NCBI GenBank assembly: GCA_013334825.1
Contig: JAAXWR010000002.1
Span: forward strand, 155,009-219,008
Direction of reading: 5' to 3'
DNA length: 64,000 bases
Origin: Candidatus Yonathbacteria bacterium
GTDB lineage: Bacteria > Patescibacteriota > Minisyncoccia > Phycocordibacterales > JACNGX01
In this document: positions 1 through 43,743 of the stretch, one piece after another
Numbering within the stretch: the stretch's first letter is position 1
Layout of the letters: every line of letters starts with the position of its first letter
The notes under the pieces: model-generated
The model's input: only the letters and a program-made list of their open reading frames with translations
Databases searched by the model: none
What the model was told of the DNA's origin: nothing
Translations under genes and position numbers: made by a program

Positions 1-13
1 CAAGCACGAAACA

Positions 14-109
14 TGCTGCGGCGTTCGAATCCCTCACGCGAGCCAAGCAGTTGGCTCGCTCCTCTCCGCATAAGAAAATCACTGCCCCAAAAAGGGCGGG
101 ATTTTCAAA
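14..109 (+). repeat. Ser-tRNA-3'-like structured element, copy 1 of 3. It reads CGTTCGAATCCCT, then a hairpin, then CTCTCCGC and AAYAAAAATC, then a second hairpin followed by GGATTTT.
   Basis: Direct visual alignment with copies at 3791-3886 and 35625-35714. The TTCGAATCCCT and CTCTCCGC blocks match the T-arm and acceptor of the tRNA-Ser(GGA) 3' end at 4974-4995. Confidence 0.6.
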
Positions 110-489
110 TGCGGTGTGTATTGGACGAAGTTCGAATGTATTTTGGACAAAATCCGCAGGATTTTGACGAATGACACTTGCACCTCGCACGCTCCCTTCG
201 GTCGCGATTCCAAAACTAAAAATTTTCCTTCCTTTATTTAAGATTTTCGGCGGGGGGTGTGTGGGGCCGATAAAAAGTGAAAGGAAATTTTTGGTTTTGC
301 TGCGCCGTTTCAGTCTCCGAAAAAAGCAATCTTATTTTAACATTTTTATTTGCTCTTTTCTCCATCTTCGCAGTGAGACGAGACACATTCAATTCGGTTG
401 CATTGGATCAAATCTTATTTTGCTTGCCATGCCTAGTGTGTGCATAATCCCGCTTCGCGAGATTACTCACTTAAAAATCTTATATCAAA

Positions 490-523
490 GAAAAAAGCGC
501 CGTACCCGAAGGTCGTGCGCTTG
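490..523 (-). terminator. Rho-independent terminator for the 565-1449 gene.
   Basis: On the minus strand the hairpin AAGCGCACGACC..GGTACGGCGCTT is followed by TTTTTTC. It sits about 40 nt past the stop codon. Confidence 0.55.
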
Positions 524-564
524 TATTGCCGAGACACGGAAATTGTCGATTAGACCAGAGCGAG

Positions 565-1449
565 TCAGAACCCTTCGAGGGTGGCCTGCGCGACACGCCG
601 ACCGAGATCTTCGTTTTTGAAGCGCTTTGCTCTTATCGAGGGTCTACCTGGGAAGAAACCGCCGCTCACCGAGAAGCCGTGAGCGACGCCGCTCCGAATC
701 GCGTCGAGAACTTCGTCCTGGGTCCAACTGTACAAACCGTTGACAGGATTCCGAATTTCCTCGGTGTGGCCGAGTAATTCGAAGAACTGCGCTTCTTCTT
801 TGATGTTGCCGAACGTGATCGGCTCGTTGTGGAAGAACTTCCAGACCGGGCCACGCTCGATGAGAACCATGTCGTCCTCGCTCGCCGACGTGTACCACCC
901 TGCGCCGAGCTCGCTCGAGATATTGTACGCGGGGTACTTGGTCCCGACCTGCGTTTGCTCAGTGAGATAGCGGTAGTCGATCCTGACGATTTGAAAAACA
1001 AAAACGTCGAGGTCGCGATTGGGTAGCATCTCGCCGTACATGTCCGTGACAGTGGAACGGTCACATGTGCGAACGAAGTCGCCCTCCCAAAACGGCGTCT
1101 CGGGAAGATTCCGAAGGAACTCCTTGCTACGCCAGTTGTCCGGCTGCTCCTGCTGGAGCTTGCGGAAGGCGGAGAGGCGACGCTCGTACTCGTCCTTGTT
1201 GGTGAGCTCGAGGCGGCCACTCGACTCGAAATACTCCTTGCCGTTCGGAAGCTGGACATTTACCCACGCACGGTTGATGTACACCCCCGGCTTGAAGCCG
1301 AAGTTGTCGAGTCGCCCGTAGTGAATCTCGGAGAAGCCGAGGATTGTGGCCTTTGTCCCGTCGGGACAAGGGTTGTAGCCACACTCCCGATTCTCCTGCG
1401 GAATTGTGATGATAACTTCGTCGCCGATTCTCGTTAATTCGTCGATCAT
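565..1449 (-). CDS. Hypothetical protein of 294 aa, encoded in a GC-rich segment.
   Basis: Long ORF with no recognised motif. Its GC content is visibly higher than the flanking DNA. Its upstream region is a 146-bp direct repeat that also lies upstream of the unrelated 2575-3450 gene. Confidence 0.6.
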   Translation of the reverse strand: MIDELTRIGDEVIITIPQENRECGYNPCPDGTKATILGFSEIHYGRLDNFGFKPGVYINRAWVNVQLPNGKEYFESSGRLELTNKDEYERRLSAFRKLQQEQPDNWRSKEFLRNLPETPFWEGDFVRTCDRSTVTDMYGEMLPNRDLDVFVFQIVRIDYRYLTEQTQVGTKYPAYNISSELGAGWYTSASEDDMVLIERGPVWKFFHNEPITFGNIKEEAQFFELLGHTEEIRNPVNGLYSWTQDEVLDAIRSGVAHGFSVSGGFFPGRPSIRAKRFKNEDLGRRVAQATLEGF

Positions 1450-1540
1450 GTTTGTCTCCTTTCATTTTTTTAGTTTGAAATGTGCGGTTGGCGCATCACA
1501 ATAGCCACCAAAATTCTGCGTTTAACCTAGCATATCTGAA

Positions 1541-1686
1541 CCATTCTGTCAAGAGCAAAACGGTTCTATTGAAGCTTTGATTTGAACTTATTTTGATATT
1601 GGTAGTTACGTAGCTTTTTTCGGATAAAACATACAGCAGTGCATGTTTTATTCTCTTACCCCTCTGCGTTCGAATCCCTTCCTCTC
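1541..1686 (+). repeat. 146-bp direct repeat, copy 1. The second copy is at 3538-3683 and differs at only about 2 positions.
   Basis: Near-identical strings read directly from the sequence. Both copies end in CCCTCTGCGTTCGAATCCCTTCCTCTC, which matches the tRNA-Ser(GGA) T-arm and acceptor. Each copy lies immediately upstream of a different minus-strand gene start. Confidence 0.9.
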
Positions 1687-1835
1687 TCGCAACATATAAA
1701 TCGCCGGGCGAATTCTCGCCCGGCTCATTATGTTGCGGTGAGGCTCGGTCTAGAACCCAGCCATCCCAAGCAGTGTAAGGCTTCTTTGGCGAGTTTGCGA
1801 CTCGACGATTTTTTTGGGAAGACGGCCGCGATTAG

Positions 1836-2150
1836 TTAGAGCAATTGCCACAAAAGAGCAATTCCCAAGATTATCCCCGGCATAATATAATCTGCAGTAA
1901 ATCTCACTTTGTGACGGTCAAACTGAAATCCAAGTTTTTCAAGCACGTGCGCATAAAATGTCATTTCACGCCTCTGGGATTTAAATTGCCACTTCGTAAG
2001 AATGCAATCACCCACAAGCAATAATTGGAGATAGTAAAGAATTATACCGATCAGAATAAGCTCCCAAGGAAGCCAAAACGGTGAACTCCAAACAGCAATA
2101 ATCAGTAGAAGATGTGTCCAGAAGAGTATGCCGAAATCTTTATCATACAT
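1836..2150 (-). CDS. Small hydrophobic membrane protein of 104 aa.
   Basis: The ORF has two or three predicted hydrophobic helices. No motif was recognised. Confidence 0.4.
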   Translation of the reverse strand: MYDKDFGILFWTHLLLIIAVWSSPFWLPWELILIGIILYYLQLLLVGDCILTKWQFKSQRREMTFYAHVLEKLGFQFDRHKVRFTADYIMPGIILGIALLWQLL

Positions 2151-2512
2151 ATGTTTATTGTAACATACTCAATATTCTTAGAGCATCGGTTGCGTAACAT
2201 CGTCTCACGTTCCTGCGGAGAGGGAGGGGACACTCACTGCTCGGACTTCGCTCGCGGGTAGCTCGCTCGTCCTGTACTCGCGAAACCCACGGTTTCGCGG
2301 GCATCCCTGCCTACCGGCAGGCAGGCTTCACGGGTAACCAGCGTCTCCTCACAGGAGCAGTACACCTTTTGGATGAATCGTTCGGACAAGTCCTCCAATT
2401 CATCTCAAAAGGTCTTGCGAAAGCTCCAAGTGTTCGCTTTCTCACCCCGACCCCCTCCGCGTTCGAATCCCTTCCTCTCCTTATTCACTTCGTTCACTGA
2501 TTGTGGTAACTC

Positions 2513-2554
2513 AATAAAAAAAGAGGGTGGAAAGTTTGGTAACTTCCCACCCTC
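2513..2554 (-). terminator. Rho-independent terminator of the lipoprotein gene.
   Basis: Minus-strand hairpin GAGGGTGG..CCACCCTC followed by TTTTTTTATT, immediately downstream of the stop at 2575. Confidence 0.65.
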
Positions 2555-2574
2555 AGTTGAGAGAGTTTGCGCTC

Positions 2575-3450
2575 TCACTTTGGAATGACGAACTGCTGGC
2601 CGTCGGCGGTTTTCACAAGTTGATAACCATTGTCTACCTTCGACCACTTCTTGGTCACCTTACCGCGAAGTTCCGACAAGCGACCTTTTACGATGAGCGA
2701 GCCAGTACTCAATTGCGCGTTCCAAGCATCGCTGGTCTTCTCATACACCTCGCGTGGAACTTCGAGCGTGATGTCGTGGGTGTTCGCCGCGTTGCGGATG
2801 TGCTTCGTGAGGTCGAGCGTGAACGTGGAGTTCTCGACCCGAATATTCACGAAGTATCGGTTGAGCGACTGGCGATCCACGAACTGGTATTCCGCAAGCG
2901 GCTTTTCCAGAACGTAGGTTCGCGCAACACCAGCAAACGGAACGGTAAGCAGTTGGCGACCGCTGGAACGCAACTGTTGCATCGCTTCGTCGTACTGCTC
3001 CTTGTTGATTTCGGTCTGCGTTCCATTTCTGTCCGCCCAGAAGTACTGGCTTTCGATCTTCTTCTCTGTGGGACGCACGACGTACTCGGCGATCTCGTCA
3101 TTGAAGACAAAACCCCAACCGTCGCCCTTACTCGAGACCTCCTGTCCGATCTCATACTCGTTGAAGGTTTTTTCATCGACGATAAGGGTGCGCGACTCGG
3201 CGGCCATCGCGTTCTTCGCATGAGCCCAAAGGTCGAGAGTGAATTGCTCCTTCTCGAATTTGAGAGTTACGAGGAACAACTTCTCTTCTCGAAGCTCGGT
3301 TGCATTCGCGAGAACCGCGACCACATCCGGTTTCGGATTTTCTGCCGGAGCCGCAGCAACTTGCCGCGACTGTTGATTCGGTTGCTGATCGCACCCCGCA
3401 AAGAACGCGAGGGCAACAATCAAGGTAAATAGGCTGGCTGACTTTCTCAA
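2575..3450 (-). CDS. Lipoprotein of about 291 aa with an internal duplication of roughly 140 aa.
   Basis: A TTG start at 3450 sits 6 nt downstream of AAGGAGA. The signal peptide is LRKSASLFTLIVALAFFAGC and ends in a lipobox. The FTLDL..H..NA motif occurs twice. Confidence 0.6.
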   Translation of the reverse strand: MRKSASLFTLIVALAFFAGCDQQPNQQSRQVAAAPAENPKPDVVAVLANATELREEKLFLVTLKFEKEQFTLDLWAHAKNAMAAESRTLIVDEKTFNEYEIGQEVSSKGDGWGFVFNDEIAEYVVRPTEKKIESQYFWADRNGTQTEINKEQYDEAMQQLRSSGRQLLTVPFAGVARTYVLEKPLAEYQFVDRQSLNRYFVNIRVENSTFTLDLTKHIRNAANTHDITLEVPREVYEKTSDAWNAQLSTGSLIVKGRLSELRGKVTKKWSKVDNGYQLVKTADGQQFVIPK

Positions 3451-3537
3451 TAGTTTCTCCTTATCTTTCGTTGTGAATGTGCGGTTTTTTGAGGCAAAAT
3501 AGCTCAATGAATCATGTGATATCTTAATATATGAAAA

Positions 3538-3683
3538 CCTTTCTGTCAAGAGCAAAACGGTTCTATTGAAGCTTTGATTTGAACTTATTTTGATATTGGT
3601 AGTTACGTAGCTTTTTTCGGATAAAACATACAGCAGTACATGTTTTATTCTCTTACCCCTCTGCGTTCGAATCCCTTCCTCTC
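3538..3683 (+). repeat. 146-bp direct repeat, copy 2. It pairs with 1541-1686.
   Basis: Direct alignment. It is followed at 3662-3725 by an inverted repeat CGAATCCCTTCCTCTCC..GGAGAGGAAGGGATTCG with a 17-bp stem. Confidence 0.9.
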
Positions 3684-3790
3684 CTTATTCACTTCGTTCA
3701 TTGCGGAGAGGAAGGGATTCGCTCCTTACAGGAGCAGTGCAGGTTTCCCATTTTTTCGGAGCATAGCTCCTCAAAAATATGGGAGAACCT

Positions 3791-3886
3791 TTTCGAATCC
3801 CTTCCCGCAGGCAAAGCAGCTTGCCTGCTCTCTCCGCTCAACAAAAATCGCACCCCTCAAAGGGTGCGGATTTTTGTACGAGCGGG
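3791..3886 (+). repeat. Ser-tRNA-3'-like structured element, copy 2 of 3.
   Basis: TTCGAATCCCTTCC, then hairpin GCAGGCAAAGCAGCTTGCCTGC, then CTCTCCGC and AACAAAAATC, then hairpin GCACCCCTCAAAGGGTGC, then GGATTTTTG. The blocks are collinear with 35625-35714. Confidence 0.7.
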
Positions 3887-4078
3887 AACGATATCCGCAA
3901 CTTTGAACCGGCAAATCGTTTAAGCTTTATCAGACTTGATAAGATTATACGAAATTTGCGACTAATATACAAAGAAAATCCTGCTTATTTTGATATTCCA
4001 CAATTCGCACAAAAGGTTTACTGAATTTACCGCTATAATCCGCTACAACCAGCTATATATAGCGTATCAGATAAAATT

Positions 4079-4873
4079 CTACTTTTTATCATAGACAGAT
4101 TCGAATTGAATATTTTGATCACTTATTCTAATAACTTCGCCACTTTTTATTGGAATCGAGTACTCTTGTGTCTGTGGATTAAAATTTTTCCCAGATAACG
4201 CTATTTTTGAGATAATCTTGCCAACCACCTTAGGATCACGGAGTTGATGCTCCATAATTTTTAATTCTGTCCGATGTTTTATATCGCCTACGCCGAAGAC
4301 CAGGACTTCTTGGTGCATCCTTGTATTAACAGACCCTGGACTTATCATAATGATTGTTACGTCTTGATTTTCTGGTTTACCGCTAAAATCTTTTAACCAT
4401 TGTTCCATACGTAATTTACCTTCTCTGTATGTTTCAATTCCACCACCAAGATCAGTATGGGCAGTATCTGAAGTTATGAAAACTATTCTGCCATGATTTT
4501 CCCTTAATGATTCAATTGCTGTCCGCGACAAAGCAATATTTGCAACCTCGTTTACCTTAAAGGCATATTCCTTGTCTTCCTTTAGACCAGTTACCCCTGC
4601 ATTTAATATTAGAACATCTATCCCACCCAATTCTGAAATACTCTCATCAATAAATTCTTGAGCATTATGTCTATCAGCCAAATCGACTTGTTTGGCATGT
4701 ATATCTGGATGAAGTTTTTTTATTTCTTTAATCTTACTTTCGGTACGAGCACAGATAGCGATTTCATGACCCTCGTCAAGTAAATCGTCAGCAATAGCTC
4801 TCCCAATGCCTTCTGTTCCACCAGTTAAGACAACCTTTTTTGTTTCAAACATATTTTGATTTAGTTTTTCCAT
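4079..4873 (-). CDS. Short-chain dehydrogenase/reductase (SDR) family oxidoreductase.
   Basis: N-terminal TGGTEGIGRAIA Rossmann motif, SDR-like overall layout and an ISPGSVNT region. The start was moved to the ATG at 4873 (MEKLNQ..). Confidence 0.8.
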   Translation of the reverse strand: MEKLNQNMFETKKVVLTGGTEGIGRAIADDLLDEGHEIAICARTESKIKEIKKLHPDIHAKQVDLADRHNAQEFIDESISELGGIDVLILNAGVTGLKEDKEYAFKVNEVANIALSRTAIESLRENHGRIVFITSDTAHTDLGGGIETYREGKLRMEQWLKDFSGKPENQDVTIIMISPGSVNTRMHQEVLVFGVGDIKHRTELKIMEHQLRDPKVVGKIISKIALSGKNFNPQTQEYSIPIKSGEVIRISDQNIQFESVYDKK

Positions 4874-4973
4874 TATAGTTCGAATCCCTTTAGAGTTCAG
4901 GCATTTTATCAAATTTCTGTTTTGAAAAGTAGCTTAAAACAAGGATATTTTAATGCACACTTTCCAAAACTTC

Positions 4974-5063
4974 TGGCGGAGAGGAAGGGATTCGAACCCT
5001 TGGTACCGTTACCGATACACCACCTTTCCAGGGTGGCCCATTCGACCGCTCTGGCACCTCTCC
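4974..5063 (-). tRNA. tRNA-Ser (anticodon GGA) with a long variable arm. CCA is encoded.
   Basis: Manual fold: acceptor GGAGAGG/CCTCTCC, anticodon loop CUGGAAA, T-loop TTCGAAT, discriminator G. Confidence 0.85.
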
Positions 5064-5244
5064 ATGTTGTTTTGAAATCCTTTTATACGAAAGGAATCCA
5101 GTGCGGACAGTTTAGCATATCTTTTTACATATCGGTAGTAGCAGATTGGATACCTCATTTCTATAGCGCAACTTTGCATAGTATACATGCATAGAGTACT
5201 ATATTTGATAATTACGAAACGAACAGTTTTGCCATTATTATCGT

Positions 5245-5955
5245 ATGATGCAACACCAAGGGATGTCATGGGAGCGTGAATATAGGAAACCAACACTTAT
5301 GACTGGGGATGCGAAGCCTCAGGCTGATGTGTTGCGATTTTTAAAGTTCTTGAAAAAGGAACGTCGATGCGTTGTTGAAGGTAAGCGAGTATTAGATCTT
5401 GGCTCAGGAACTGGGCGAAATTCAAACTATCTGGCAAGTCTGGGGAATGATGTGATTGGCATAGAGATTTCACCTACAGCGCTTCATAGTGCAAAACAGA
5501 ACAATACAGGCGATATGCATGTAGACTACATGCTGGGAGATATAGGTGCTCCGTATGCTCTCGATACCGAGTCCATTGATATTATTTTGGATGTTACATC
5601 TTCGAACTCACTCAATGAAAAAGGTAGAGAAGTATACTTACAAGAGACGAGTAGGGTATTAAAGACAGGAGGATATATGTTTGTGCGCGCTCTATGCAAA
5701 GATGGTAACGCCAATGTGAAAAATCTTCTCAAGATACATCCCGGAAAAGAGCGCGACACCTATTATCTAAAAGAAATGGATTTGTTTGAGAGAGTGTTTA
5801 GTCGTGAGGATATTACACATATGTATGCACCATATTTTACTATTCTCACCCTTGAAAAAAAGACAGGATATCCTCGTATGGCTGGGCGTTTATACAAACG
5901 AGATTATTGGATTATGTACCTACAAAAACGTCCGACTAGCGCTGATATTCATTGA
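5245..5955 (+). CDS. Class I SAM-dependent methyltransferase.
   Basis: VLDLGSGTGRNS glycine-rich SAM-binding motif I in a Rossmann-type layout. Confidence 0.75.
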   Translation: MMQHQGMSWEREYRKPTLMTGDAKPQADVLRFLKFLKKERRCVVEGKRVLDLGSGTGRNSNYLASLGNDVIGIEISPTALHSAKQNNTGDMHVDYMLGDIGAPYALDTESIDIILDVTSSNSLNEKGREVYLQETSRVLKTGGYMFVRALCKDGNANVKNLLKIHPGKERDTYYLKEMDLFERVFSREDITHMYAPYFTILTLEKKTGYPRMAGRLYKRDYWIMYLQKRPTSADIH

Positions 5956-21030: not shown

Positions 21031-21079
21031 ATCGGTGTGTATGGACGGATAAAAGATGTCCGTGTACAATGACACGCAC

Positions 21080-21150
21080 GCGGAATTAGTTAAGTGGCAT
21101 AACATTAGCTTCCCAAGCTGAGATCGCGGGTCCGATTCCCGCATTCCGCA
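21080..21150 (+). tRNA. tRNA-Gly (anticodon CCC).
   Basis: Manual fold: acceptor GCGGAAT/ATTCCGC, D-stem GTTA/TAAC, anticodon loop UUCCCAA, T-arm GCGGG-TCCGATT-CCCGC. CCA is not encoded. Confidence 0.8.
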
Positions 21151-21478
21151 CAAAGGACGCCCTTCAGGGGCGTCCTTTGTGCGGAATGAGCGAGCAAACT
21201 GCTTTGCTCGCGTTGGGAATCGGACGGCTCGGCGATGTTGTCGCTTGCGACGACCGCGAGCCGCGTCCAGGAGTACTTAGCGGATTGCGAATAAGTGAAG
21301 CAATACGCTTAGTAACTCCGGGACGATTCCCGCATTCCGCACCCAGCCCTACTTTCATAACAAACGCATGTACACTACATGCGTTTGTTATGTGATTATT
21401 AGAAATATATATTATTGAGTGTTTAATGAAAGTAGAGCTGGGTGCGGAATGAGCGAGCAAACTGCTTGATATACATTA
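21151..21478 (+). repeat. Composite element downstream of tRNA-Gly. It contains a terminator hairpin, an inverted copy of the tRNA 3' end split by a CTGC-loop hairpin, an H2 module, a direct copy of the 3' end, a roughly 105-bp CCCAGCC hairpin and a second truncated inverted copy.
   Basis: 21180-21227 reads TGCGGAATG[AGCGAGCAAACTGCTTTGCTCGC]GTTGGGAATCGGACGG. 21319-21341 reads CGGGACGATTCCCGCATTCCGCA. 21342-21447 reads CCCAGCCCTACTTTCAT..ATGAAAGTAGAGCTGGG. The 24-bp string TGCGGAATGAGCGAGCAAACTGCT occurs at both 21180 and 21447. Confidence 0.8.
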
Positions 21479-22633
21479 TTATCCGCAAATTGCGGCTCGT
21501 ATTGCTGGTACGACAGCGGGGTCCATTACTGTCGGCATGATATGTTCGGGTGTTGGTTCTGTTACAACAGACGCAATTGCTTCGGCGGTGGCGATTTTCA
21601 CCTCAGTCATATGTTCAGAGAGAACACATTTTTTTGGAATCGTGTTTGCGTCAAGAAGAGCACGAAAGATACCGGGAAAAACGAGCGCATTGTTGATTTG
21701 ATTAGGAAAATCAGAGCGTCCAGTACCGATAATAAATGCACCAGCTTCTTTTGCGTCGTCAGGAAGTATTTCAGGCTCAGGATTTGCCATAGCAAAGATG
21801 ATAGGACGTGGTGCCATGGAACGAACCATTTCCTGTGAAAGAAGTCCTGGCCCAGATACACCGACAAAAGCATCTACACCAATGAGTGCGTCTGAGAGAC
21901 TTCCTGTTATTCCGCGCGGATTTGAAATGTTCGCTATGTGTTCTTTATATACATTCATCCCATCGCGTCCAAGTGCAACAATACCTTTGCTATCGACAAG
22001 AATGATATCAGATATACCGTATGCGGAAAAAAGTCGTGCGATAGCGATACCTGCCGCACCTGCACCGTTCACGACAATCTTTAAGGTACGTATATCTCCT
22101 CCGCGAACTTTTGTTGCATTGATGAGCGCTGCAAGTGCGACGATTGCCGTTCCGTCCTGATCGTCATGAAAGACGGGGATAGAAAGTTCTTTTTCTAAAC
22201 GGTCAAGAATATCAAAACATCGTGGCGCGGAAATATCTTCCAAATTAATTCCCCCAAACGAAGGTGCTATCTGTTTGCAAAAACGGACAATCTCTTCTGC
22301 GTCTTGAGTAGCGATACATAATGGGACAGCGTCAACGTCGGCAAGTGTTTTGAATATCATTGCCTTTCCTTCCATGACTGGCAACCCTGCTTCAGGACCG
22401 ATATTTCCAAGACCAAGGATAGCAGAGCCATCGGAGACGATTGCAATGGTATTGCTTTTATTGGTGAGAGAGTTTACTTGTTCAGGATGCGCCACAATTT
22501 CCATGCATACTTTTCCAACACCAGGTGTGTATGCGAGTGCAAGATCCACAGCATCGTTGAGTGGAGCTTTAGGTTTAATTTCTATTTTACCGCGATGTGC
22601 GCGATGATAATCAAGTGGGTCCATAGATGTCAA
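21479..22633 (-). CDS. NAD(P)-dependent malic enzyme (short form).
   Basis: Malic-enzyme N-terminal region (LAYTPGVGKVCMEI) and a Rossmann motif VVNGAGAAGIAIARL. Confidence 0.85.
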   Translation of the reverse strand: MTSMDPLDYHRAHRGKIEIKPKAPLNDAVDLALAYTPGVGKVCMEIVAHPEQVNSLTNKSNTIAIVSDGSAILGLGNIGPEAGLPVMEGKAMIFKTLADVDAVPLCIATQDAEEIVRFCKQIAPSFGGINLEDISAPRCFDILDRLEKELSIPVFHDDQDGTAIVALAALINATKVRGGDIRTLKIVVNGAGAAGIAIARLFSAYGISDIILVDSKGIVALGRDGMNVYKEHIANISNPRGITGSLSDALIGVDAFVGVSGPGLLSQEMVRSMAPRPIIFAMANPEPEILPDDAKEAGAFIIGTGRSDFPNQINNALVFPGIFRALLDANTIPKKCVLSEHMTEVKIATAEAIASVVTEPTPEHIMPTVMDPAVVPAIRAAICG

Positions 22634-22724
22634 AAAAGGATATAATGCAATGCATTATACCCCGGGGAGGTTCCCTGCGCTAGTGTGACTTTCATATATT
22701 CTGTAAGGACGATATACTTACCTT

Positions 22725-23915
22725 ATGGAAAAAGCACCTCGCCGAAATGAAAAAGCACATGCAGATGAAAACTCATTTTCTAATGGTGTACCTGATAATG
22801 TCCCTGAAGTAACTTCTCTGAAAGGTGGTAAGGAAGGTGGTGATGTAGCTTCTCATGAAAAAGCAAAGCATCTTCTTATGGAGATCGAATCAACGAAAGG
22901 AGTTTCTCCTTCGGGGGGACAAGAGACTTCTGTGTCAGAAAAAAAAGAAGAGCATGAATCTGTCCCCAATCCTTCACGGAGACGTTTTTTGAGACAAGTA
23001 TTTACATATGGAGCAGGAGCGACGATTGTGTCGATTCCATTTTTGGGAAGACTCTTTAATAAGGGTGATGTGGTATCAGAGAAAGATAAAAAGGAAGTGA
23101 ACGATGTAAATCGTCTTGCTCGTGAACTTGATGCTGTTGAGAAAGATGATAGTATTGAGCGACGTGAGCGTTTTATAAAACGAGTGAGAGAGACAGGAGA
23201 ATTCATTGTAAGGGACGAAGATACCATACTTGATACGGATGTGATGGAAGCATTGGAAGAGTATTGGCAAAAACAATTCATGACACGACGTGATGGACGT
23301 GAAGATGTTCCTTTTGCGTGGGAAGATATACTTCTTGCCAGAGAACGTATGCGCCCGTATATGCCGTCTATGCGGAGAGCATTTAAAAATCAAGGACTTT
23401 CTGATGCACTTGTAGGACTCGCTATTGTGGAGTCATGGGGAGATAGGTTTGCGCGCTCTCACGCGGGAGCAAAAGGACTGTATCAGTTTACGGAGAGTAC
23501 TGGGCGTATGTATGGACTTGAAACAGAGGCAGATTTTTTTGATCCTATAACATCATCTCTTGCTGCGGCGAAGTATATTGCCACGATGTATGATGTAAAT
23601 GGGGGGAGTCTTCCACTCGCTCTTCACGAATATAATGGGGGATACGCGCTGGCATATAGAATGAACCACACAGATAAAAAAGCTGACTATGTGGGATTTT
23701 TGAAAGAAATGGAGTATGTTATTAATGAAAAGAGACATGCATTTGGAGATATAGATGAACGGACATTTCTTGAAGAAGTGAAGGACGTTAATGGTTCTTT
23801 GCATGGGCTCTTTGAGAATGTTGTGTATCCTGCAAAAGTATTTGCGGCGGAATACGCGATGAGACAAGCTGATAAAGAAGAATTGGAAAAGGAGACGCTT
23901 CTTGCTCGTCGCTGA
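22725..23915 (+). CDS. Lytic transglycosylase (SLT) domain protein with a twin-arginine-like signal.
   Basis: SRRRFLRQV then a hydrophobic stretch. The SLT core is VESWGDRFARSHAGAKGLYQFTESTG..AAAKYI. Confidence 0.65.
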   Translation: MEKAPRRNEKAHADENSFSNGVPDNVPEVTSLKGGKEGGDVASHEKAKHLLMEIESTKGVSPSGGQETSVSEKKEEHESVPNPSRRRFLRQVFTYGAGATIVSIPFLGRLFNKGDVVSEKDKKEVNDVNRLARELDAVEKDDSIERRERFIKRVRETGEFIVRDEDTILDTDVMEALEEYWQKQFMTRRDGREDVPFAWEDILLARERMRPYMPSMRRAFKNQGLSDALVGLAIVESWGDRFARSHAGAKGLYQFTESTGRMYGLETEADFFDPITSSLAAAKYIATMYDVNGGSLPLALHEYNGGYALAYRMNHTDKKADYVGFLKEMEYVINEKRHAFGDIDERTFLEEVKDVNGSLHGLFENVVYPAKVFAAEYAMRQADKEELEKETLLARR

Positions 23916-24029
23916 TACCCCCATGGGGTATGTTGCGCATCATGTTTCATGTGGTATACTAGAATCTATTAATCGTTTTGGATGATATATCGCATTTGCG
24001 ATATGCCAGCCATAGTTATTTTTTTACAC

Positions 24030-24269
24030 ATGGAACAAAAGACTGTTATTGTATATTCCACGCCAACATGTGCGTTTTGCCACATGGCAAAGGAATATTT
24101 TACTCAGAACAATGTCGCGTTTACCGATCACAATGTCGCGACCGATTTGGAAAAGCGTCAGGAGATGCTTGAACTCACGGGACAGATGGGTGTTCCTGTT
24201 ATCAAAATCGGTGATGATATTGTCATTGGTTTTGATCAAGGACACATTGCTGAATTGCTCGGACTGTAA
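24030..24269 (+). CDS. Glutaredoxin-like protein (NrdH-like).
   Basis: A 79-aa thioredoxin-fold protein carrying a CAFC redox motif and the GVPVIKIGD signature. Confidence 0.75.
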   Translation: MEQKTVIVYSTPTCAFCHMAKEYFTQNNVAFTDHNVATDLEKRQEMLELTGQMGVPVIKIGDDIVIGFDQGHIAELLGL

Positions 24270-24334
24270 TCTTGAGAAAAAATATGCTTTAATGAAAGCG
24301 CCGTATCCTTTTATAGGGTCGGCGCTTTCATCAT

Positions 24335-24406
24335 CCCTTCGTAGCTCAATGGATAGAGCAACTCCGTCCTAAGGAGAAGATGTAGGTTCGACTCCCGCCG
24401 AAGGGA
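24335..24406 (+). tRNA. tRNA-Arg (anticodon CCT).
   Basis: Manual fold: acceptor CCCTTCG/CGAAGGG, D-stem GCTC/GAGC, anticodon loop GUCCUAA, T-loop TTCGACT. There is one mismatch in the anticodon stem and one in the T-stem. Confidence 0.6.
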
Positions 24407-24670
24407 CATATTGAAAAACACCCTTTAGGGTGTTTTTCAATATGTCCCTTCGGAGTAAGCCGACTGCTCGGCTTACGTCGGGAGTCGAACTGAGCACCAC
24501 TTTTGCTGTTGCAAAAGTGGTGCTCGACGTCCAGCGGTACTTATGGAAATGCGAGTGCCCGAAGCATTTCCATTAGTAACCGCGGGACGATTCCTGCCGA
24601 GGGGTTTTTGATTGTGAGCGTATCCCGCGAACCTTTCCGAGCAGTGAGTGTTCCTGCCGAGGGGACAGGC
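24407..24670 (+). repeat. Composite element downstream of tRNA-Arg. It contains a 21-bp-stem hairpin, an inverted 3' copy split by a CTGC-loop hairpin, and H1, H2 and degenerate direct 3' copies.
   Basis: GGGACATATTGAAAAACACCC..GGGTGTTTTTCAATATGTCCC, then TTCGG[AGTAAGCCGACTGCTCGGCTTACGT]CGGGAGTCGAAC. H1 is GAGCACCACTTTTGC..GCAAAAGTGGTGCTC. H2 is GTCCAGCGGTACTTAT..TTAGTAACC followed by GCGGGACGATTCCTGCCGAGGGG. Confidence 0.8.
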
Positions 24671-24823
24671 GAGTTTTAAGTTTATAGTTTCAAGAGCACG
24701 GAAAATATATTTTTTAGTGTTTTTTAACTTATAATTTGAAGTTCACGACTTTTGTAAAATTAAAGAATGAGATATAGTCCATTCTTATTTCCATATACAA
24801 GTATTCATGATACCATATAGTCC

Positions 24824-25264: not shown

Positions 25265-25400
25265 CCCAGCCCTACATTCATAATAAACGCATGTACACCA
25301 CGTGCGTTTATTTTGTGATTGTTGCATTTTTACATATTGCCACCTTTCATGAATGTAGGGCTGGGTGCCGAGGGAGGAAGGCAACTGCTTGCCCACAGTT
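25265..25400 (+). repeat. Composite element downstream of tRNA-Phe. It is a roughly 100-bp CCCAGCC hairpin module followed by an inverted acceptor copy and a CTGC-loop hairpin.
   Basis: CCCAGCCCTACATTCATAATAAACGCATGTACACCACGTGCGTTTATT..CATGAATGTAGGGCTGGG, then GTGCCGAGGGAGGAAGGCAACTGCTTGCCC. Confidence 0.8.
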
Positions 25401-25492: not shown

Positions 25493-25747
25493 ATGACTAC
25501 GCTTAATATAAGAATTGAAGAAAAAATTAAAGTGAAGGCAAATAAAACATTATCTTCACTTGGGCTTGATATGTCTACGGCAGTTAAGATATTTTTGAAT
25601 CAAGTTATTATAGAAGACGGTTTACCGTTTACCCCTACGAATAATAAACTTATGCTAAAAGAACGTTGGGATAAACAAACTGCTCATGCATTGAAGTATG
25701 GAAAAAATTACAAAAATGGTAAAGATGTATTGTCTGACATAGTGTAA
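25493..25747 (+). CDS. dinJ: Type II antitoxin, DinJ/RelB family.
   Basis: MTTLNIRIEEKIKVKANKTLSSLGLDMSTAVKIFLNQVIIEDGLPF matches the DinJ RHH N-terminus. Confidence 0.8.
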   Translation: MTTLNIRIEEKIKVKANKTLSSLGLDMSTAVKIFLNQVIIEDGLPFTPTNNKLMLKERWDKQTAHALKYGKNYKNGKDVLSDIV

Positions 25748-25758
25748 TATTTTTTTGT

Positions 25759-26040
25759 ATGTATACGATACGTCGTTCAAAAGACTTTGAATTATCTATT
25801 AAACGTCTAAAACATGCAGGGTTAAAGCCGTCAGTAAAACATGATATTGAGTGTGTTATCGATTTGCTTGCTTTAGGGGAAAAGTTACCCGCGAAATATA
25901 GAGATCACAAATTACAAGGAGAACTTTCAGCGTATAGAGAGTGTCATATAAAAGGAGATTTGCTTTTGATTTATATGATAAGAAAAGAGTACATGATATT
26001 GATTCTTGTTGATATCGGTTCTCACGCGCAATTATTTTAA
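25759..26040 (+). CDS. yafQ: Type II toxin, YafQ (RelE/ParE superfamily).
   Basis: DHKLQGELSAYRECHIKGDLLLIY..GSHAQLF matches the YafQ consensus, and it lies immediately downstream of dinJ. Confidence 0.8.
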   Translation: MYTIRRSKDFELSIKRLKHAGLKPSVKHDIECVIDLLALGEKLPAKYRDHKLQGELSAYRECHIKGDLLLIYMIRKEYMILILVDIGSHAQLF

Positions 26041-35488: not shown

Positions 35489-35624
35489 ATAAAACTATGA
35501 TACCATGTCGATTGATTTTTAGGGAGGGATTTGTCCTGGAGTTACTAATTGAAATGTTCTATGTATTCTCATTTTAATAAGTACTCCTGGACGCGGCTCG
35601 CATTTCTCGCGAGCGAGAAATATG

Positions 35625-35714
35625 CTCCGCCGTTCGAATCCCTCCTCGCAGGCAAAGCAGTTTGCCTGCTCTCTCCGCCCAACAAAAATCGCACCCTAAA
35701 GGTGCGGATTTTTG
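35625..35714 (+). repeat. Ser-tRNA-3'-like structured element, copy 3 of 3.
   Basis: CGTTCGAATCCCTCC, then hairpin TCGCAGGCAAAGCAGTTTGCCTGC, then TCTCTCCGCC and CAACAAAAATC, then GCACCCTAAAGGTGC and GGATTTTTG. It is preceded by the palindrome GCATTTCTCGCGAGCGAGAAATATGC. Confidence 0.7.
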
Positions 35715-35787
35715 AACGGGCGGGCATCGTGGTTTAAATACCAGAGCGGTGATACATCATAAGGGCAATTTGAGATAATTTCAATTA

Positions 35788-36618
35788 CTAAACTGAGACA
35801 TGTAGCTCGGAGGTTTGTAAAATTTCTTGGTGTAATTTTTCTATTTTCTCCTGATCCTCTTTCTGTCGTATTGCAGAATAAAATTCTGGATCAAATTTTC
35901 TGATTGCGTCTTTCAAGGTGTCTGGAGTTTCAATAACCACATTAGGATCCTTTCGCTGCTCCATTGTTCTTATTTGAGAAGCTACTTCATCCCAGAGTTT
36001 TTCGGCGACATCTTTGTTGGGCATAGTAGCAAGTTTCTCAATAAACACTTTTCTATACTTCTCAATCCCCGAGCCTATACGTGCATGAAACATTCCAGAG
36101 ATTCCAAATTGAATTGTCCTAAAATCAGGTTCTTGTAGCAGTAGTGTTTCTTTTTCTTTATCTGAAGCTTCTCCGTATTTTTCATTCAACATTTGCTTGT
36201 ATTCCTCAGTTTTTTGATAGAAACTAAGTTGATCCTCAATCTCTTTTTCAATTATTGCAGTACTCAGAGGTTGAACTCGCAGATCCTCGTAATATTTTGA
36301 ATTTTCATTATTTTCCGCTCCAAGTTTCTCCATTACTTTTTGTCGGTATGAATCAATTGCAATGTTAGTACTCAATAGATTTTCGGCATCAACATACAAG
36401 AATGAATCTACATCACTTTCAGATCTTGCTTGTTTCCCTTTAATCATTGATCCATAAATCGTTGCTCCTAAAACTTCGGGATTTTCTTTTTGAAGGTCTT
36501 TGATTGTAGCTCGAAAAGTGTCTAGACGAGCTTTTGCTTCATCTTGAATCGGCAATTCAAAACGCTTCTCCTTTATTTTTTCTTCAGTTTGATTATTTAG
36601 AGAGGCTTGCTCTTTCAT
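35788..36618 (-). CDS. Nucleotidyltransferase-fold protein (Pol-beta superfamily; KNTase- or CD-NTase-like), otherwise hypothetical.
   Basis: GATIYGSMIKGKQARSESDVDSFLYVD matches the GS..x9-13..[DE]h[DE]h NTase signature. The rest of the protein is K/E-rich. Confidence 0.5.
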   Translation of the reverse strand: MKEQASLNNQTEEKIKEKRFELPIQDEAKARLDTFRATIKDLQKENPEVLGATIYGSMIKGKQARSESDVDSFLYVDAENLLSTNIAIDSYRQKVMEKLGAENNENSKYYEDLRVQPLSTAIIEKEIEDQLSFYQKTEEYKQMLNEKYGEASDKEKETLLLQEPDFRTIQFGISGMFHARIGSGIEKYRKVFIEKLATMPNKDVAEKLWDEVASQIRTMEQRKDPNVVIETPDTLKDAIRKFDPEFYSAIRQKEDQEKIEKLHQEILQTSELHVSV

Positions 36619-36656
36619 ACACCTATTCTAGCTTAAATGCTCGTATTTATCTACTC

Positions 36657-36687
36657 GGGTCTGCCGATACTAAGTGCTTAATGCGGG
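36657..36687 (+). repeat. 31-bp direct repeat GGGTCTGCCGATACTAAGTNCTTAATGCGG, copy 1. Copy 2 at 37813-37843 abuts the tRNA-Ser(CGA) 3' end.
   Basis: Read directly. The two copies bracket the 36777-37742 gene. Confidence 0.8.
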
Positions 36688-36776
36688 CAACTCGGGTTAA
36701 GTACCAAGTGTATGAGACACAATAAGGCTGGTTTGGAAGAATTTCAGAGGCTAATCCGAGGTATGTGGGTCGGAGT

Positions 36777-37742
36777 CTATAATATCGACTCGAAGTATTC
36801 TTTAAACTCCTCAGAAGAAGCTGTTTGGTATTTTTCATAAAGGCTTTTAATTTCCTCATCCGAGAAAACAGATATAACGTCATGTGTTATTTTTAGGTTT
36901 GGTAGCTCTTTCTTTAGGAGAAGATAGAGGGCTATTTTAGGCAACAAATATTTTGACTCCTCCATTCCCTTAAAATGAATATTGCGTTCTGTTGCCATTC
37001 GAGGATCAAAGTTGTATGGCATGCTTGAGAATTCTCGACTTACATCATTCCCTGATTTTTTCATCTCGTGATATAGGCGAGTGTGAAAACCTCCCATTGA
37101 AAAAAGTATCTTCAAGTTTTCTTTTTTCTGGAGATCAGGATTCTGCTTCAATGTTTCAGCCAAAGCTTCTGGAAGTTTTTCTAAAATATAATCTTCGCGA
37201 GCCTTCTGCATGTCGGACTCAAATTTTGATACATTACCGATTCTTCGAAGCGTTTCCTCATAGGGCAAGGACTTATTTATGAGGTTGTTATAAGCACCAT
37301 TGGATGCATACAGACCCATAAGGTTTTTAAAGACGACATTATCATTTGGAACGTCTACAAGCATTACTTTCTTCTCTGATTTATACAAACCCTCGAGTAA
37401 CGAAGCATAGAAGTCTTTCCACAAAAATGGCTTTCCATTCTGCTTTTCCATATCCATCGCCTGTTCAGGGGTCAGAGTACCATTTGATACTTCGTTGAAA
37501 ATATCGAGTCGAGCAGAATCCCAACCGGCGTTTTCCTGAATGAGAATATCTGCGTTTTTTAGGCGTTCACCCACCGCTTGTCCGTTTTCTGCTGTTGCGT
37601 GTTTGTGAAAGAAGAAATTGGTTTCAATTTTGGGCACGTTTTCAATACCTTTTTCTCTCAGCAAAGAACCTAAATCATTCTGAGCCGAAGATTTTTCTAA
37701 GTCTAAATTATTGCTTTTTAACCCAAAATTTTGTCCTTCCAT
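36777..37742 (-). CDS. Hypothetical protein of 321 aa, inside a repeat-bounded islet.
   Basis: ORF with no recognised motif. It is flanked by the 31-bp direct repeats. Confidence 0.45.
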   Translation of the reverse strand: MEGQNFGLKSNNLDLEKSSAQNDLGSLLREKGIENVPKIETNFFFHKHATAENGQAVGERLKNADILIQENAGWDSARLDIFNEVSNGTLTPEQAMDMEKQNGKPFLWKDFYASLLEGLYKSEKKVMLVDVPNDNVVFKNLMGLYASNGAYNNLINKSLPYEETLRRIGNVSKFESDMQKAREDYILEKLPEALAETLKQNPDLQKKENLKILFSMGGFHTRLYHEMKKSGNDVSREFSSMPYNFDPRMATERNIHFKGMEESKYLLPKIALYLLLKKELPNLKITHDVISVFSDEEIKSLYEKYQTASSEEFKEYFESIL

Positions 37743-37840
37743 GTTTTTATTTTAGCTTAAAATTACCCTTTTGGTAATCATGTCGTCGGGTCGCACCACA
37801 GTCATATGACCATGGGTCTGCCGATACTAAGTTCTTAATG

Positions 37841-37927
37841 CGGAGAGGGAGGGATTTGAACCCTCGAACGAGTTACCTCGTTGCCGCATTTCGAGTGCGG
37901 TGCCTTCGACCACTCAGCCACCTCTCC
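37841..37927 (-). tRNA. tRNA-Ser (anticodon CGA).
   Basis: Manual fold: acceptor GGAGAGG/CCTCTCC, anticodon stem-loop CCGCA-CUCGAAA-UGCGG, long variable arm, T-loop TTCAAAT. Confidence 0.85.
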
Positions 37928-38421: not shown

Positions 38422-38819
38422 CAAAACGCCAGCGCCGAAGTATATCTTCGGCGCTGTTGCGTTTTGTAGACCCTACGGGGAATCGAACGGCGCAAGGCGG
38501 TATACAAGATGCGCAAGATTGCGCATGCTTGTCGCTGCGCCGCGTCCAGCGGTACTTATCAGAATGCGAGCATTGGCGAAGCATTATGATTAGTAACCGC
38601 GGGACGATTCCCCGTAGTGCCTTTCGTGAGAATCGAACCGAGCACCACTTTTGCAATGGCAAAAGTGGTGCTCGATGTCCAACAGTATCCAGCCCCACTT
38701 TCATAATAAACACATGTGCTGTGATAGATTTTTTATCCGAGTTATGAGTATTGTTTATGAATGAAGCCTCTCATGAAAGTGGAGCTGGATAACCGTGGGG
38801 ACGATTCCCCGTAGAGTCA
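38422..38819 (+). repeat. Composite element downstream of tRNA-Glu. It contains a long hairpin, a contiguous inverted copy of the tRNA 3' end, a GGCGCAAGGCGGTATACAAG box, H2, a direct 3' copy, H1, a roughly 100-bp CCAGCC hairpin and a second direct 3' copy.
   Basis: 38467-38490 TAGACCCTACGGGGAATCGAACGG is the reverse complement of the tRNA's 3' end. 38599-38621 reads GCGGGACGATTCCCCGTAGTGCC. 38797-38819 reads GGGGACGATTCCCCGTAGAGTCA. The modules align with those of the Gly, Arg and Val loci. Confidence 0.8.
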
Positions 38820-43407: not shown

Positions 43408-43500
43408 TGTTCGAGCCCCGTGTCACCACGCAAATACAAACAATCGCAAGGGCATGCCTTGCGATTGTGTATTTGTGGGCGACACAGGACTCGTCCCGCG
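43408..43500 (+). repeat. Direct repeat of about 93 bp, copy 1. It duplicates the downstream hairpin, the inverted T-arm copy and the last 18 nt of tRNA-Val. Copy 2 is at 43676-43768.
   Basis: The two copies are identical over roughly 90 nt (CGTTCGAGCCCCGTGTCACCACGCAAATACAAACAATCGCAAGGGCATGCCTTGCGATTGTGTATTTGTGGGCGACACAGGACTCG). They bracket a CCAGC hairpin module at 43503-43606. Confidence 0.9.
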
Positions 43501-43743
43501 GTTATCCAGCTCCACTTTCATAATAAACACATACGCCATGATAGATTTTTTATCCGAGACGTAGGTATTGTTTATAGATGAAGTCTCTCATGAAAGTGGG
43601 GCTGGATACCGTTGGACGCGGCGCGGCGACAAGCACTCGCGAGTAAACTCGCTCGTCTTGTATACCGCCTTGCGCCGTTCGAGCCCCGTGTCACCACGCA
43701 AATACAAACAATCGCAAGGGCATGCCTTGCGATTGTGTATTTG

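Follow-up and report, generated by a model that had tools for sequence, protein, structure and literature searches.

The window, i.e. the whole 64,000-nt stretch of a Candidatus Yonathbacteria contig analysed here, harbours tRNA genes followed by short folded repeats, some of which are accompanied by single accessory genes (Table 1). Three of these repeats had been described from the sequence as dispersed copies of an element of approximately 95 nt resembling the 3' end of a tRNA-Ser. All three are present on the plus strand, at positions 14-109, 3791-3886 and 35625-35714, with the collinear blocks reported for them, and their alignment has a mean column identity of 77%. Taken together, their blocks 1 and 3 correspond to the T-loop, the 3' strand of the T-stem and the 3' strand of the acceptor stem of tRNA-Ser(GGA) (TTCGAATCCCTTCC and CTCTCCGC in the copies, TTCGAATCCCTTCCTCTCCGCCA in the tRNA; block 1 begins with TTCGAATCCCT and block 3 is CTCTCCGC). 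As ARAGORN and Rfam both place this tRNA gene on the minus strand, the three copies are inverted relative to it.

The 11-mer TTCGAATCCCT with at most one mismatch occurs 9 times in the window versus 1.5 expected, a number reached by none of 100 shuffles, and further fragments of the Ser 3' end are found on the plus strand at 1669, 2462, 3666 and 4879. Three base pairs of hairpin 1 differ between copy 1 and copies 2 and 3, all of them with compensation. A covariance model built from non-Ser relatives matches copies 1, 2 and 3 with E values of 2e-11, 2.9e-9 and 4.1e-35. The copies are real, non-random members of a family derived from a tRNA 3' end, as the original prediction had it. Its scope was wrong: they are neither Ser-specific, their likeness to tRNA-Ser reflecting only the adjacent tRNA, nor 95-nt genes.

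Table 1. Coordinates of the units, spacers, repeats, tRNA partners and cargo in the window. hp1, P2 and P3 are hairpins of the unit; R1 is the covariance model described in the text; a dot marks features without strand.
Feature	Position	Strand	Basis and remarks
Copy 1 left end: tRNA-Ser 3' end in reverse complement, interrupted by hp1 (38-59)	1-69	-	R1 match
Copy 1 palindromic terminator-like spacer (hairpin 2)	70-109	.	Sequence
164-nt repeat	1523-1686	-	Second copy at 3520-3683, 95%
Type D element without hp1: left end GGAGAGGAAGGGATTCGAAC, then GCGGAGGGGGTCGGGG...CCGAGCAGTGAGTG, then right end	2217-2483	-	Sequence repeats
Copy 2 full unit, with hp1 at 3807-3828 in the left end, internal hairpins and a right end at 3703-3721	3702-3838	-	R1, E = 2.9e-9
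Copy 2 palindromic terminator spacer	3842-3876	.	Pseudo-tRNA-end remnant next, 3876-3896
Cargo unit between tRNA-Ser(GGA) and copy 2	3887-4973	-	1.09 kb; SDR gene 4079-4855
tRNA-Ser(GGA)	4974-5063	-	3' end (4976-4994) repeated directly, over 19 nt without mismatch, in the copy 2 right end (3703-3721)
Canonical unit behind tRNA-Gly(CCC)	21180-21341	+	R1, 159 bits; fold -88 kcal/mol, z = -7.6
Unit behind tRNA-Arg(CCT)	24445-24605	+	R1; left end perfectly complementary to the window's variant tRNA 3' end
Truncated left end behind tRNA-Phe, break directly after the CTGC loop	25365-25400	+	RelB/YafQ genes next
Copy 3 full unit, partner tRNA-Ser(CGA)	35516-35679	-	R1, 125.7 bits, E = 4e-35
Copy 3 palindromic terminator spacer	35680-35714	.	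Sequence
Two single-gene cargo units	35715-37839	-	NTase-domain gene 35788-36618; unknown 321-aa gene 36777-37742
tRNA-Ser(CGA), partner of copy 3	37840-37927	-	ARAGORN
Two tandem units behind tRNA-Glu(TTC)	38430-38807	+	R1; first without hp1, second with palindromic insert in P3
Unit behind tRNA-Val(GAC), with palindromic insert	43476-43700	-	R1; in tandem repeat reaching about 43400

Extent and architecture of the units

Each of the three copies is only the left end and the spacer of a larger unit of about 140-190 nt. The full unit is present behind copies 2 and 3; behind copy 1 it is cut by the window start, and its R1 match (44.7 bits) is truncated at the 3' side. Copy 1 is 89-90% identical to units adjoining tRNA-Ser in two other loci, L013 and L006, copy 2 is 85-88% identical to the Saccharibacteria units of L006 and L008, and copy 3 is syntenic with the L013 unit that adjoins tRNA-Ser(CGA). 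The hairpin 2 of the copies with its T run is a symmetric terminator, which in cargo-free relatives is located directly between the tRNA 3' end and the element; the copy 1 type of spacer is found in this position in L006 and L013.

On the tRNA strand, the order of the parts is tRNA 3' end (hereafter T), palindromic spacer, left end, internal hairpins and right end. The left end is the reverse complement of the T of the neighbouring tRNA, split at the boundary between acceptor and T-stem by the hairpin hp1, with a CTGC loop. hp1 departs from the left end at this boundary or 1 nt off, which is where nucleotides 8-48 exit the minihelix in a real tRNA. Between the two ends lie one to two internal hairpins (P2, P3), or cargo instead. 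The right end repeats the tRNA 3' end directly, with identity usually starting from T-loop position 56. The tRNA-Gly unit, for instance, has TGCGGAATG / hp1 / TGGGAATCGGAC as its left end, complementary to the 3' end of tRNA-Gly, and a right end that is a 19-nt direct copy of it.

The spacer takes the form of an intrinsic-terminator-like hairpin, a GAACGAAGTGA loop or a palindromic insert, and T, spacer and left end make up one continuous, near-perfect hairpin. As hairpins, the spacers are symmetric, with runs of A and T flanking them on either side, and are therefore silent as to the folding strand. Approximately half of the loci have no terminator and only 0-25 nt between tRNA and unit, and these units must therefore be co-transcribed. 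The short spacer is often GAACGAAGTGA, which occurs 12 times in 9 loci, always directly after a tRNA-type end.

Distribution and link to tRNA genes

An exact-pattern scan of one genome per species detected the hairpin-split Ser motif in 12 loci, nearly all of them in CPR genome bins (Saccharibacteria, Kaiserbacteria, Lloydbacteria, Paceibacterota and Parcubacteria). At most of these loci, the motif and the terminator hairpin are immediately followed by a convergent tRNA-Ser, and the complement of the tRNA end is present ~100-130 nt ahead of the motif. The 'Chloroflexi' locus of the pattern scan (L003) has no R1 match and is a chance match. The conserved internal motif of the units was found in 72 loci of metagenome contigs. 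Of 83 occurrences of the motif, 60 have a same-strand tRNA at most 600 nt upstream, mostly at 85-200 nt; these tRNAs represent 14 amino-acid types.

We built the covariance model R1 from an alignment (A2) of ten units associated with eight tRNA species, using an RNAalifold structure of 44 pairs that comprises the helices P1a (acceptor-like ends), hp1, P1b (T-arm-like ends), P2 and P3. R1 identified 132 units in 85 sources, nearly all CPR bacteria. They sit on the strand of the tRNA, directly downstream of tRNAs of at least 14 amino-acid types. Eighty of the matches are within 130 nt downstream of a same-strand tRNA and 17 are in tandem behind another unit; the remainder are at contig edges (17) or elsewhere (18, mostly with genes inserted). 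Units follow 65 of the 113 tRNAs in the sampled loci, and they are conserved at orthologous tRNAs.

The window harbours 8 R1 units, including all three original copies, every one on the strand of the adjacent tRNA. The others are behind tRNA-Gly, tRNA-Arg, tRNA-Glu (two) and tRNA-Val, and a truncated left end lies behind tRNA-Phe; in all cases the ends match their own tRNA. The Gly and Glu units were first exposed by BLAST of the window against the pattern-scan loci, and every tRNA of the window was then inspected. The right end of the tRNA-Arg(CCT) unit and a second copy at 24650-24668 retain the 3' end of close relatives (see below). Type D elements, which lack hp1, are also found behind tRNA-Arg in the loci L038 and L071, and one is present in L006.

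Of 54 units, 23 contain the acceptor 8-mer of the neighbouring tRNA (3' strand plus discriminator) with 8 of 8 matches in their right end, and 17 contain its perfect reverse complement in their left end, whereas controls with permuted tRNAs gave 0% and 0.2%, respectively. Over 66 tRNA-adjacent units, the right end is identical to the tRNA at 767 of 826 paired positions. The block of identity, 18 nt long when counted from C56 of the T-loop, starts precisely at this nucleotide (GGTT/CGA in the tRNA, GGGA/CGA in the unit) in 18 of 31 non-redundant cases, for 13 tRNA types, and within 1 nt of it in three more. A trend, though not a decisive one (24 versus 12), was seen for the left end to track the tRNA rather than the right end.

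Conservation of the fold and strand

In the R1 alignment, 92.2% of the cells are paired versus 70.4% in shuffles, compensatory changes on both sides occur in 43 of the 44 pairs, and the covariation score is 0.43 versus 0.13 for shuffles and 0.03-0.065 for slid controls; that the alignment was fitted to R1 itself somewhat inflates the pairing and covariation figures. The hairpins have stable tri- and tetraloops at their tips; these tips are hypervariable, and palindromic inserts are found in them. For both strands, folding is much better than in shuffles, with z = -7.6 for the tRNA strand and z = -10 for the opposite one. Wobble pairs read as G.U rather than A.C on the tRNA strand in a ratio of 196:103 overall and 17:2 in hp1. 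This bias places any folding strand opposite to the plus strand of the original prediction.

That prediction had proposed that each 95-nt copy is a self-contained sRNA gene of the plus strand with its own intrinsic terminator. The good hairpin with its T run and the stable folding of that strand are in favour of it, but the conserved unit reaches ~100 nt further upstream of the proposed start, the wobble bias points the other way (17 A.C against 2 G.U in hp1 for that strand), the terminator is palindromic and shared with a convergent tRNA, and no promoter was defined. We consider this reading barely credible.

Turnover between close relatives

We compared the window with three metagenome contigs, L015, L038 and L071, that are 88-96% identical to its region at 24-30 kb. 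Gain, loss and module swapping of units are apparent among these close relatives. The body of tRNA-Arg(CCT) is identical in all, and the 3' end in the window differs at three positions, resulting in an A.C mismatch in the T stem. The left end of the window unit matches this new 3' end, whereas both copies of its right end keep the version of the relatives. The latter have at this position a type D unit without hp1, followed by an hp1-containing unit with two palindromic inserts. Such a pattern would be expected if a unit, on arrival, supplied the tRNA end from its own copy and thereby moved the previous one downstream.

Behind tRNA-Phe, L038 and L071 have a truncated second left end that is separated from the tRNA by a full unit, and this unit is missing in the window; one relative has a terminator as spacer, the others a palindromic insert. 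Truncated left ends break directly after the hp1 loop. The tRNA-Gly locus shows hardly any change among relatives in the tRNA and in the two ends of the unit, hp1 included, and its spacer, P2 and P3 are swapped for versions with compensatory differences.

Single-gene cargo

The units themselves hold no ORF, and cargo units contain one accessory gene each. In keeping with the original prediction, the three copies are found at the boundaries of single-gene cassettes, namely those of the SDR gene, of the NTase-domain gene and of a gene coding for a 294-aa protein. The SDR cargo unit consists of a 5' module (partial left end at 4879-4892, TATAAT), the SDR gene (Pfam adh_short, 3e-30) and a 3' module, and together with copy 2 it is bracketed by the perfect 19-nt direct repeat (region 3703-4994). 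In L008 the unit adjoins tRNA-Ser(GGA) without insert. A Lloydbacteria locus, L007, has flanks like those of the window with a TadA/dCMP-deaminase-like gene in place of the SDR gene. L007 and the window have in common the unit, the 3' module with a short conserved ORF remnant and the motif CCGCTATAATCCG, and a 105-nt 5' module with the partial left end and a -10-like box.

The NTase and 321-aa cargo units share a common 5' UTR and are bounded by a 30-nt direct repeat (36657-36686 and 37814-43). They are missing in the syntenic locus L013, where the unit adjoins tRNA-Ser(CGA), near tRNA-Glu. Cargo-bearing cases have a pseudo-tRNA-end remnant, GGGACATCGTCCCCGC-like, directly before the spacer. 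Region 1-5063 thus consists of five or more units stacked in tandem behind tRNA-Ser(GGA), four of which each carry a single gene. In two of these four, the promoter-bearing module is the same, namely the 164-nt repeat, which combines a TTGACA promoter-like module with a CTGC hairpin resembling hp1 and a left end that lacks hp1; its two copies precede different cargo genes (565-1449 and 2575-3432). Cargo is miscellaneous, including the SDR, the NTase-domain protein, unknown proteins and, behind tRNA-Phe, RelB/YafQ.

Searches for known families and mobile elements

At the gathering threshold of Rfam 15, only 7 tRNAs match in the window and no family matches the copies; permissive scans of regions 1-5300 and 21050-24700 (E up to 5-10) gave chance hairpin matches only. 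ARAGORN predicts neither a tmRNA nor an additional tRNA at the copies, and no homology to known ends of MITEs or IS elements was detected. Two patterns had no matches in viral contigs, and blastn against phages and plasmids yielded none either. No recombinase, including tyrosine recombinases, is present among the window ORFs tested, which have housekeeping or accessory roles. When 631 neighbouring ORFs were clustered all against all, only syntenic housekeeping families recurred, and a Pfam scan of 150 representative neighbour proteins revealed no recurrent integrase or transposase family.

Exact look-ups of window proteins, performed to find the region upstream of copy 1 and strain variants, retrieved only short contigs ending in repeats, and there was no exact record for the 258-aa SDR reading. 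Two Logan contigs of the source sample end inside units. Full-text literature searches on tRNA-linked repeats, tRNA-like RNAs, islands and structured RNAs of CPR bacteria and Saccharibacteria yielded no description of the units; a report of group I introns in Patescibacteria tRNAs deals with introns of the anticodon loop, a different feature. The units appear to be an undescribed, widespread class of 160-190-nt folded elements located directly behind CPR tRNA genes.

Nature of the units

The architecture of the units, their tailoring to each tRNA, the conserved fold, the turnover in close relatives and the link to single-gene insertions are observed. From these we infer a recombination step and its enzyme, and propose, with about as much belief as doubt, that the units are recombination modules, non-autonomous and directed at tRNA T-loops, which act as landing pads for cassettes. 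Units would enter, leave and be exchanged by recombination inside T, possibly by means of a recombinase that is encoded elsewhere and acts site-specifically at the T-loop, or through homology-driven exchange after DNA uptake. The T copy of the incoming unit would restore the tRNA, and the old T would be pushed downstream. Through the left end, a single DNA strand or a transcript might fold back onto either T or the right end. The folded product would mimic the acceptor/T-minihelix of a tRNA, with hp1 emerging in the place of the D-arm, and such a fold could be the structure recognised in recombination, as are attC sites or the folded attachment site of the CTX phage. Because each unit would end in a new T-like site, units and single-gene cargo could pile up in tandem, as at 1-5063. 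On the other side, the tested window ORFs include no recombinase and none recurs near the elements, neither an excised circle nor an exact empty-site pair was observed, and homologous recombination among repeats can yield all the polymorphisms seen. Homologous exchange after natural DNA uptake, with tRNA and unit as homology arms, would give the same products. The preference for G.U over A.C fits RNA at least as well as single-stranded DNA, approximately half of the units follow their tRNA without a terminator, and a host function would be equally compatible with the occurrence of units at most tRNA genes and with the strong purifying selection acting on their fold.

These last points lead to the main rival, which we regard as possible but rather unlikely, namely a structured RNA made from the tRNA strand as a trailer of the tRNA, by co-transcription or read-through. 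Its ends would mimic the acceptor/T minihelix and be released by tRNA enzymes (RNase P, 3' processing, CCA addition), and it would have a role in the maturation, quality control or regulation of its tRNA, with cassettes making secondary use of the landmark. The very strong covariation in all helices, the G.U bias of the tRNA strand (most marked in hp1), the stable fold with its tri- and tetraloops, the start 0-25 nt after the tRNA in half of the loci, the exit of hp1 exactly where nucleotides 8-48 leave the minihelix, and the frequency of units behind sampled tRNAs, with conservation at orthologues, argue for it. Against it are the many loci in which a good symmetric terminator separates tRNA and unit with no space for a promoter, the interchangeable internal domains of several unrelated types, and the units that are in tandem, truncated or have genes replacing their core. 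In tRNA-Arg, replacement of the unit left a mismatched T stem; moreover, an RNA helix needs neither a 3' strand identical to the tRNA nor a fixed identity boundary in the T-loop, and the units have no Rfam match. The DNA-module and RNA readings are compatible, in that a mobile module may need its own transcript. The original prediction had offered 'att remnants' as an alternative, and this came close, as the tRNA 3' end is directly repeated, insertions are present at sites that are empty in syntenic loci, and cargo is swapped; plain scars are improbable. That the units are ordinary att scars of decayed, integrase-bearing islands or prophages in tRNA genes would account for direct repeats starting from the T-loop, for accessory genes beside tRNAs and for tandem accretion like that of tRNA-proximal islands (tycheposons). 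It would not lead one to expect an inverted copy of the site, a covarying hairpin and a compensated 160-nt fold across phyla, and neither integrase remnants among the neighbouring ORFs examined nor matches in viral contigs, phages or plasmids were found; in addition, units are found at most tRNAs, versus few for classical islands. We also hold highly improbable a passive growth of palindromes, in which template switching at the tRNA terminator hairpin copies the 3' end in reverse and the functionless product spreads by unequal recombination. The continuous T-spacer-left end hairpin and the hypervariable tips with palindromic inserts are what it predicts, but it fails on the fixed position of hp1, the direct copy at the right end, the selection for pairing, the P2/P3 core common to different tRNAs and phyla, and an architecture that is constant across 14 tRNA types. 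IS200/IS605 or RAYT hairpin ends, IS110 bridge-RNA-like guides, integron attC membership, tRNA-primed reverse transcription by analogy with R-U5-PBS, a tmRNA variant and a split or permuted tRNA were set aside, as no gene or signature supported them.

Relationship to known systems

The units resemble integron cassettes and their attC sites in that single-gene units pile up at one site, with miscellaneous accessory cargo that includes toxin-antitoxin pairs, and in that the candidate site is conserved in fold over sequence, with compensatory changes and a branch or extrahelical feature. Like attC sites, they are imperfect palindromes with a conserved fold (92% paired, 43 of 44 pairs compensated). 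In contrast, no integron integrase was found in the window ORFs scanned and none recurs among the 150 neighbour proteins, and the units have no attI and no R''(RYYYAAC)...R'(GTTRRRY) core, the nearest sequence, GTTCGAA, having C at the fourth position. Unlike in integrons, the site is a tRNA 3' end that differs for each tRNA, cargo comes with its own promoter modules, and most units are empty.

Integrative elements that target tRNA genes reportedly include a class with attachment sites in the T-loop, said to have been described by Williams in 2002. Our units share with tRNA-targeting islands the direct repeats of the tRNA 3' end from the T-loop, exemplified by the perfect 19-nt repeat that flanks the SDR insert (3703-3721 and 4976-4994), tandem accretion beside the tRNA, as also known for the tRNA-proximal tycheposons, and the apparent restoration of the tRNA by an element-borne copy with displacement of the old one. 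They differ from these islands by their size of 160-190 nt, with no integrase or gene of their own, by their inverted copy of the site and conserved fold, and by their presence behind most tRNA genes of a genome.

The folded attachment site of the Xer-dependent CTX phage likewise contains its target in inverted copy, so that one DNA strand can form a duplex resembling the double-stranded site. The two systems differ in that the CTX target is dif, its enzyme is the known XerCD and the element is a phage. REP/REPIN-RAYT elements and MITEs are likewise short, non-autonomous, intergenic palindromic repeats, often terminator-like, long-lived and structure-conserved. Their ends are fixed, whatever gene lies beside them, whereas those of the units are copies of the adjacent tRNA and change with it; no RAYT or transposase is present in the ORFs examined, and no transposase family recurs. 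Mimicry of the acceptor/T minihelix is shared with tmRNA, YrlA, mascRNA and plant t-elements, and a stretch of ~20 nt complementary to a tRNA 3' end with the retroviral primer-binding site. The units differ from tRNA-like RNAs in having no equivalents of T-loop, D-loop or anticodon, and ARAGORN and Rfam are blind to them; no reverse transcriptase is associated with them, and their mimicry is re-tailored to each tRNA.

Significance

We tentatively suggest that the CPR units behind most tRNAs are programmable docking sites that mimic the minihelix of their own tRNA. Under this joint reading, they might function in cassette capture, with an enzyme using tRNA 3' ends as integrons use attI and attC, or as partner RNAs made with each tRNA and relying on the tRNA-processing machinery. 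If either is true, the units represent a class of elements absent from Rfam and from the literature searched. In practice, they break assemblies.

CPR bacteria (Patescibacteria) have tiny genomes, few recognisable mobile elements and very variable gene content. If the units are recombination platforms, they would explain how single genes such as those for toxin-antitoxin pairs, nucleotidyltransferases, dehydrogenases and deaminases move between distant CPR lineages, and they would point to a recombinase, or a route of uptake and recombination, by which a DNA fold shaped like a tRNA is recognised. Should they be RNAs instead, they would constitute a new, abundant class, in one-to-one association with tRNAs, across a large part of the bacterial tree.

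Variation around and within the tRNA-linked units

A palindromic insert of ~100 nt, of the form CCAGCCC.ACTTTCAT ... ATGAAAGT.G.GCTGG and with a terminator-like hairpin inside, recurs in the window (see the table). It is invariably found at the apex of a larger hairpin, its two sites being the interval between the tRNA end and the left end of the unit, or the tip of P3, an internal hairpin of the unit. In some relatives it is found in place of the terminator spacer. The insert has the appearance of a mobile palindrome of a second, nested kind. The motif GAACGAAGTGA also substitutes for the terminator, as a recurrent loop or spacer immediately 3' of the tRNA-type end. GCGAAGC-type mini-hairpins are common at the tips of P3 and of the other internal hairpin, P2.

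A second element type lacks hp1, the CTGC-loop hairpin that splits the left end of typical units, and has a larger core (GCGGAGGGGGTCGGGG ... CCGCGAAACCGTGGGTTTCGCGAG ... CCGAGCAGTGAGTG). Its ends are matched to tRNA like those of hp1 units, at Ser and Arg.

At tRNA-Arg(CCT), the T stem reads GTAGG/CCCGC in the window versus GTAGG/CCTGC in close relatives, and the tRNA 3' end seems to have been exchanged jointly with the downstream unit. At the tRNA-Phe site, the RelB/YafQ pair is also kept in two relatives (L038 and L071).

Coordinates of the features in the window and in compared loci
Feature	Sequence	Positions	Strand	Remark
Palindromic insert, ~100 nt	window	21343-21446, 25266-25364, 38689-38788, 43506-43605
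Motif GAACGAAGTGA	window	2485-2495, 3689-3699	-
Motif GAACGAAGTGA	L002, L006, L017, L021, L028, L068, L069, L072, L078
Element type without hp1	window	2217-2483	-
Element type without hp1	L038	5090-5240
Element type without hp1	L006	about 870-1100
tRNA-Arg(CCT)	window	24335-24407		A.C mismatch in T stem
RelB antitoxin/YafQ toxin pair	window	25493-26040		directly 3' of truncated left end behind tRNA-Phe
Short frame, cassette 3' module	window	3779-4024	+
Short frame, cassette 3' module	L007	about 2700-2865	+
Large ORF, 637 aa	window	52918-54831	-
Large ORF, 838 aa	window	60010-62526	+

Gene content

The 3' module of the single-gene cassette contains a short reading frame that is conserved between the window and the Lloydbacteria locus L007, with the respective C-terminal ends ..IRNLRLIYKENPAYFDIPQFAQKVY and ..LRLIYQEKPDLFDVPTFAQKIY before the stop, and followed on its 3' side by the motif CCGCTATAATCCG(C/T)TACAA. 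This frame may represent either what is left of a gene or a small protein carried along with the cassette. A Pfam scan of the 637- and 838-aa ORFs of the window returned no significant family.

Assembly breaks and taxonomic reach

Two independent short-read contigs from the sample that is also the source of the window (SRR11449211), L001 (window 30-1573) and L086 (starting at approximately window 4973), have ends that fall within the tRNA-linked repeats or at the 3' end of tRNA-Ser; assemblies are broken by these elements.

A 'Chloroflexi' candidate, L003, was rejected as a chance pattern match. Typical units are present in a 'Gammaproteobacteria' bin (L010) and an unclassified bin (L002), scoring 70 and 68 bits, respectively, with R1, the covariance model of the units. 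Either these are misassigned CPR contigs in bins, or the family extends beyond the CPR.
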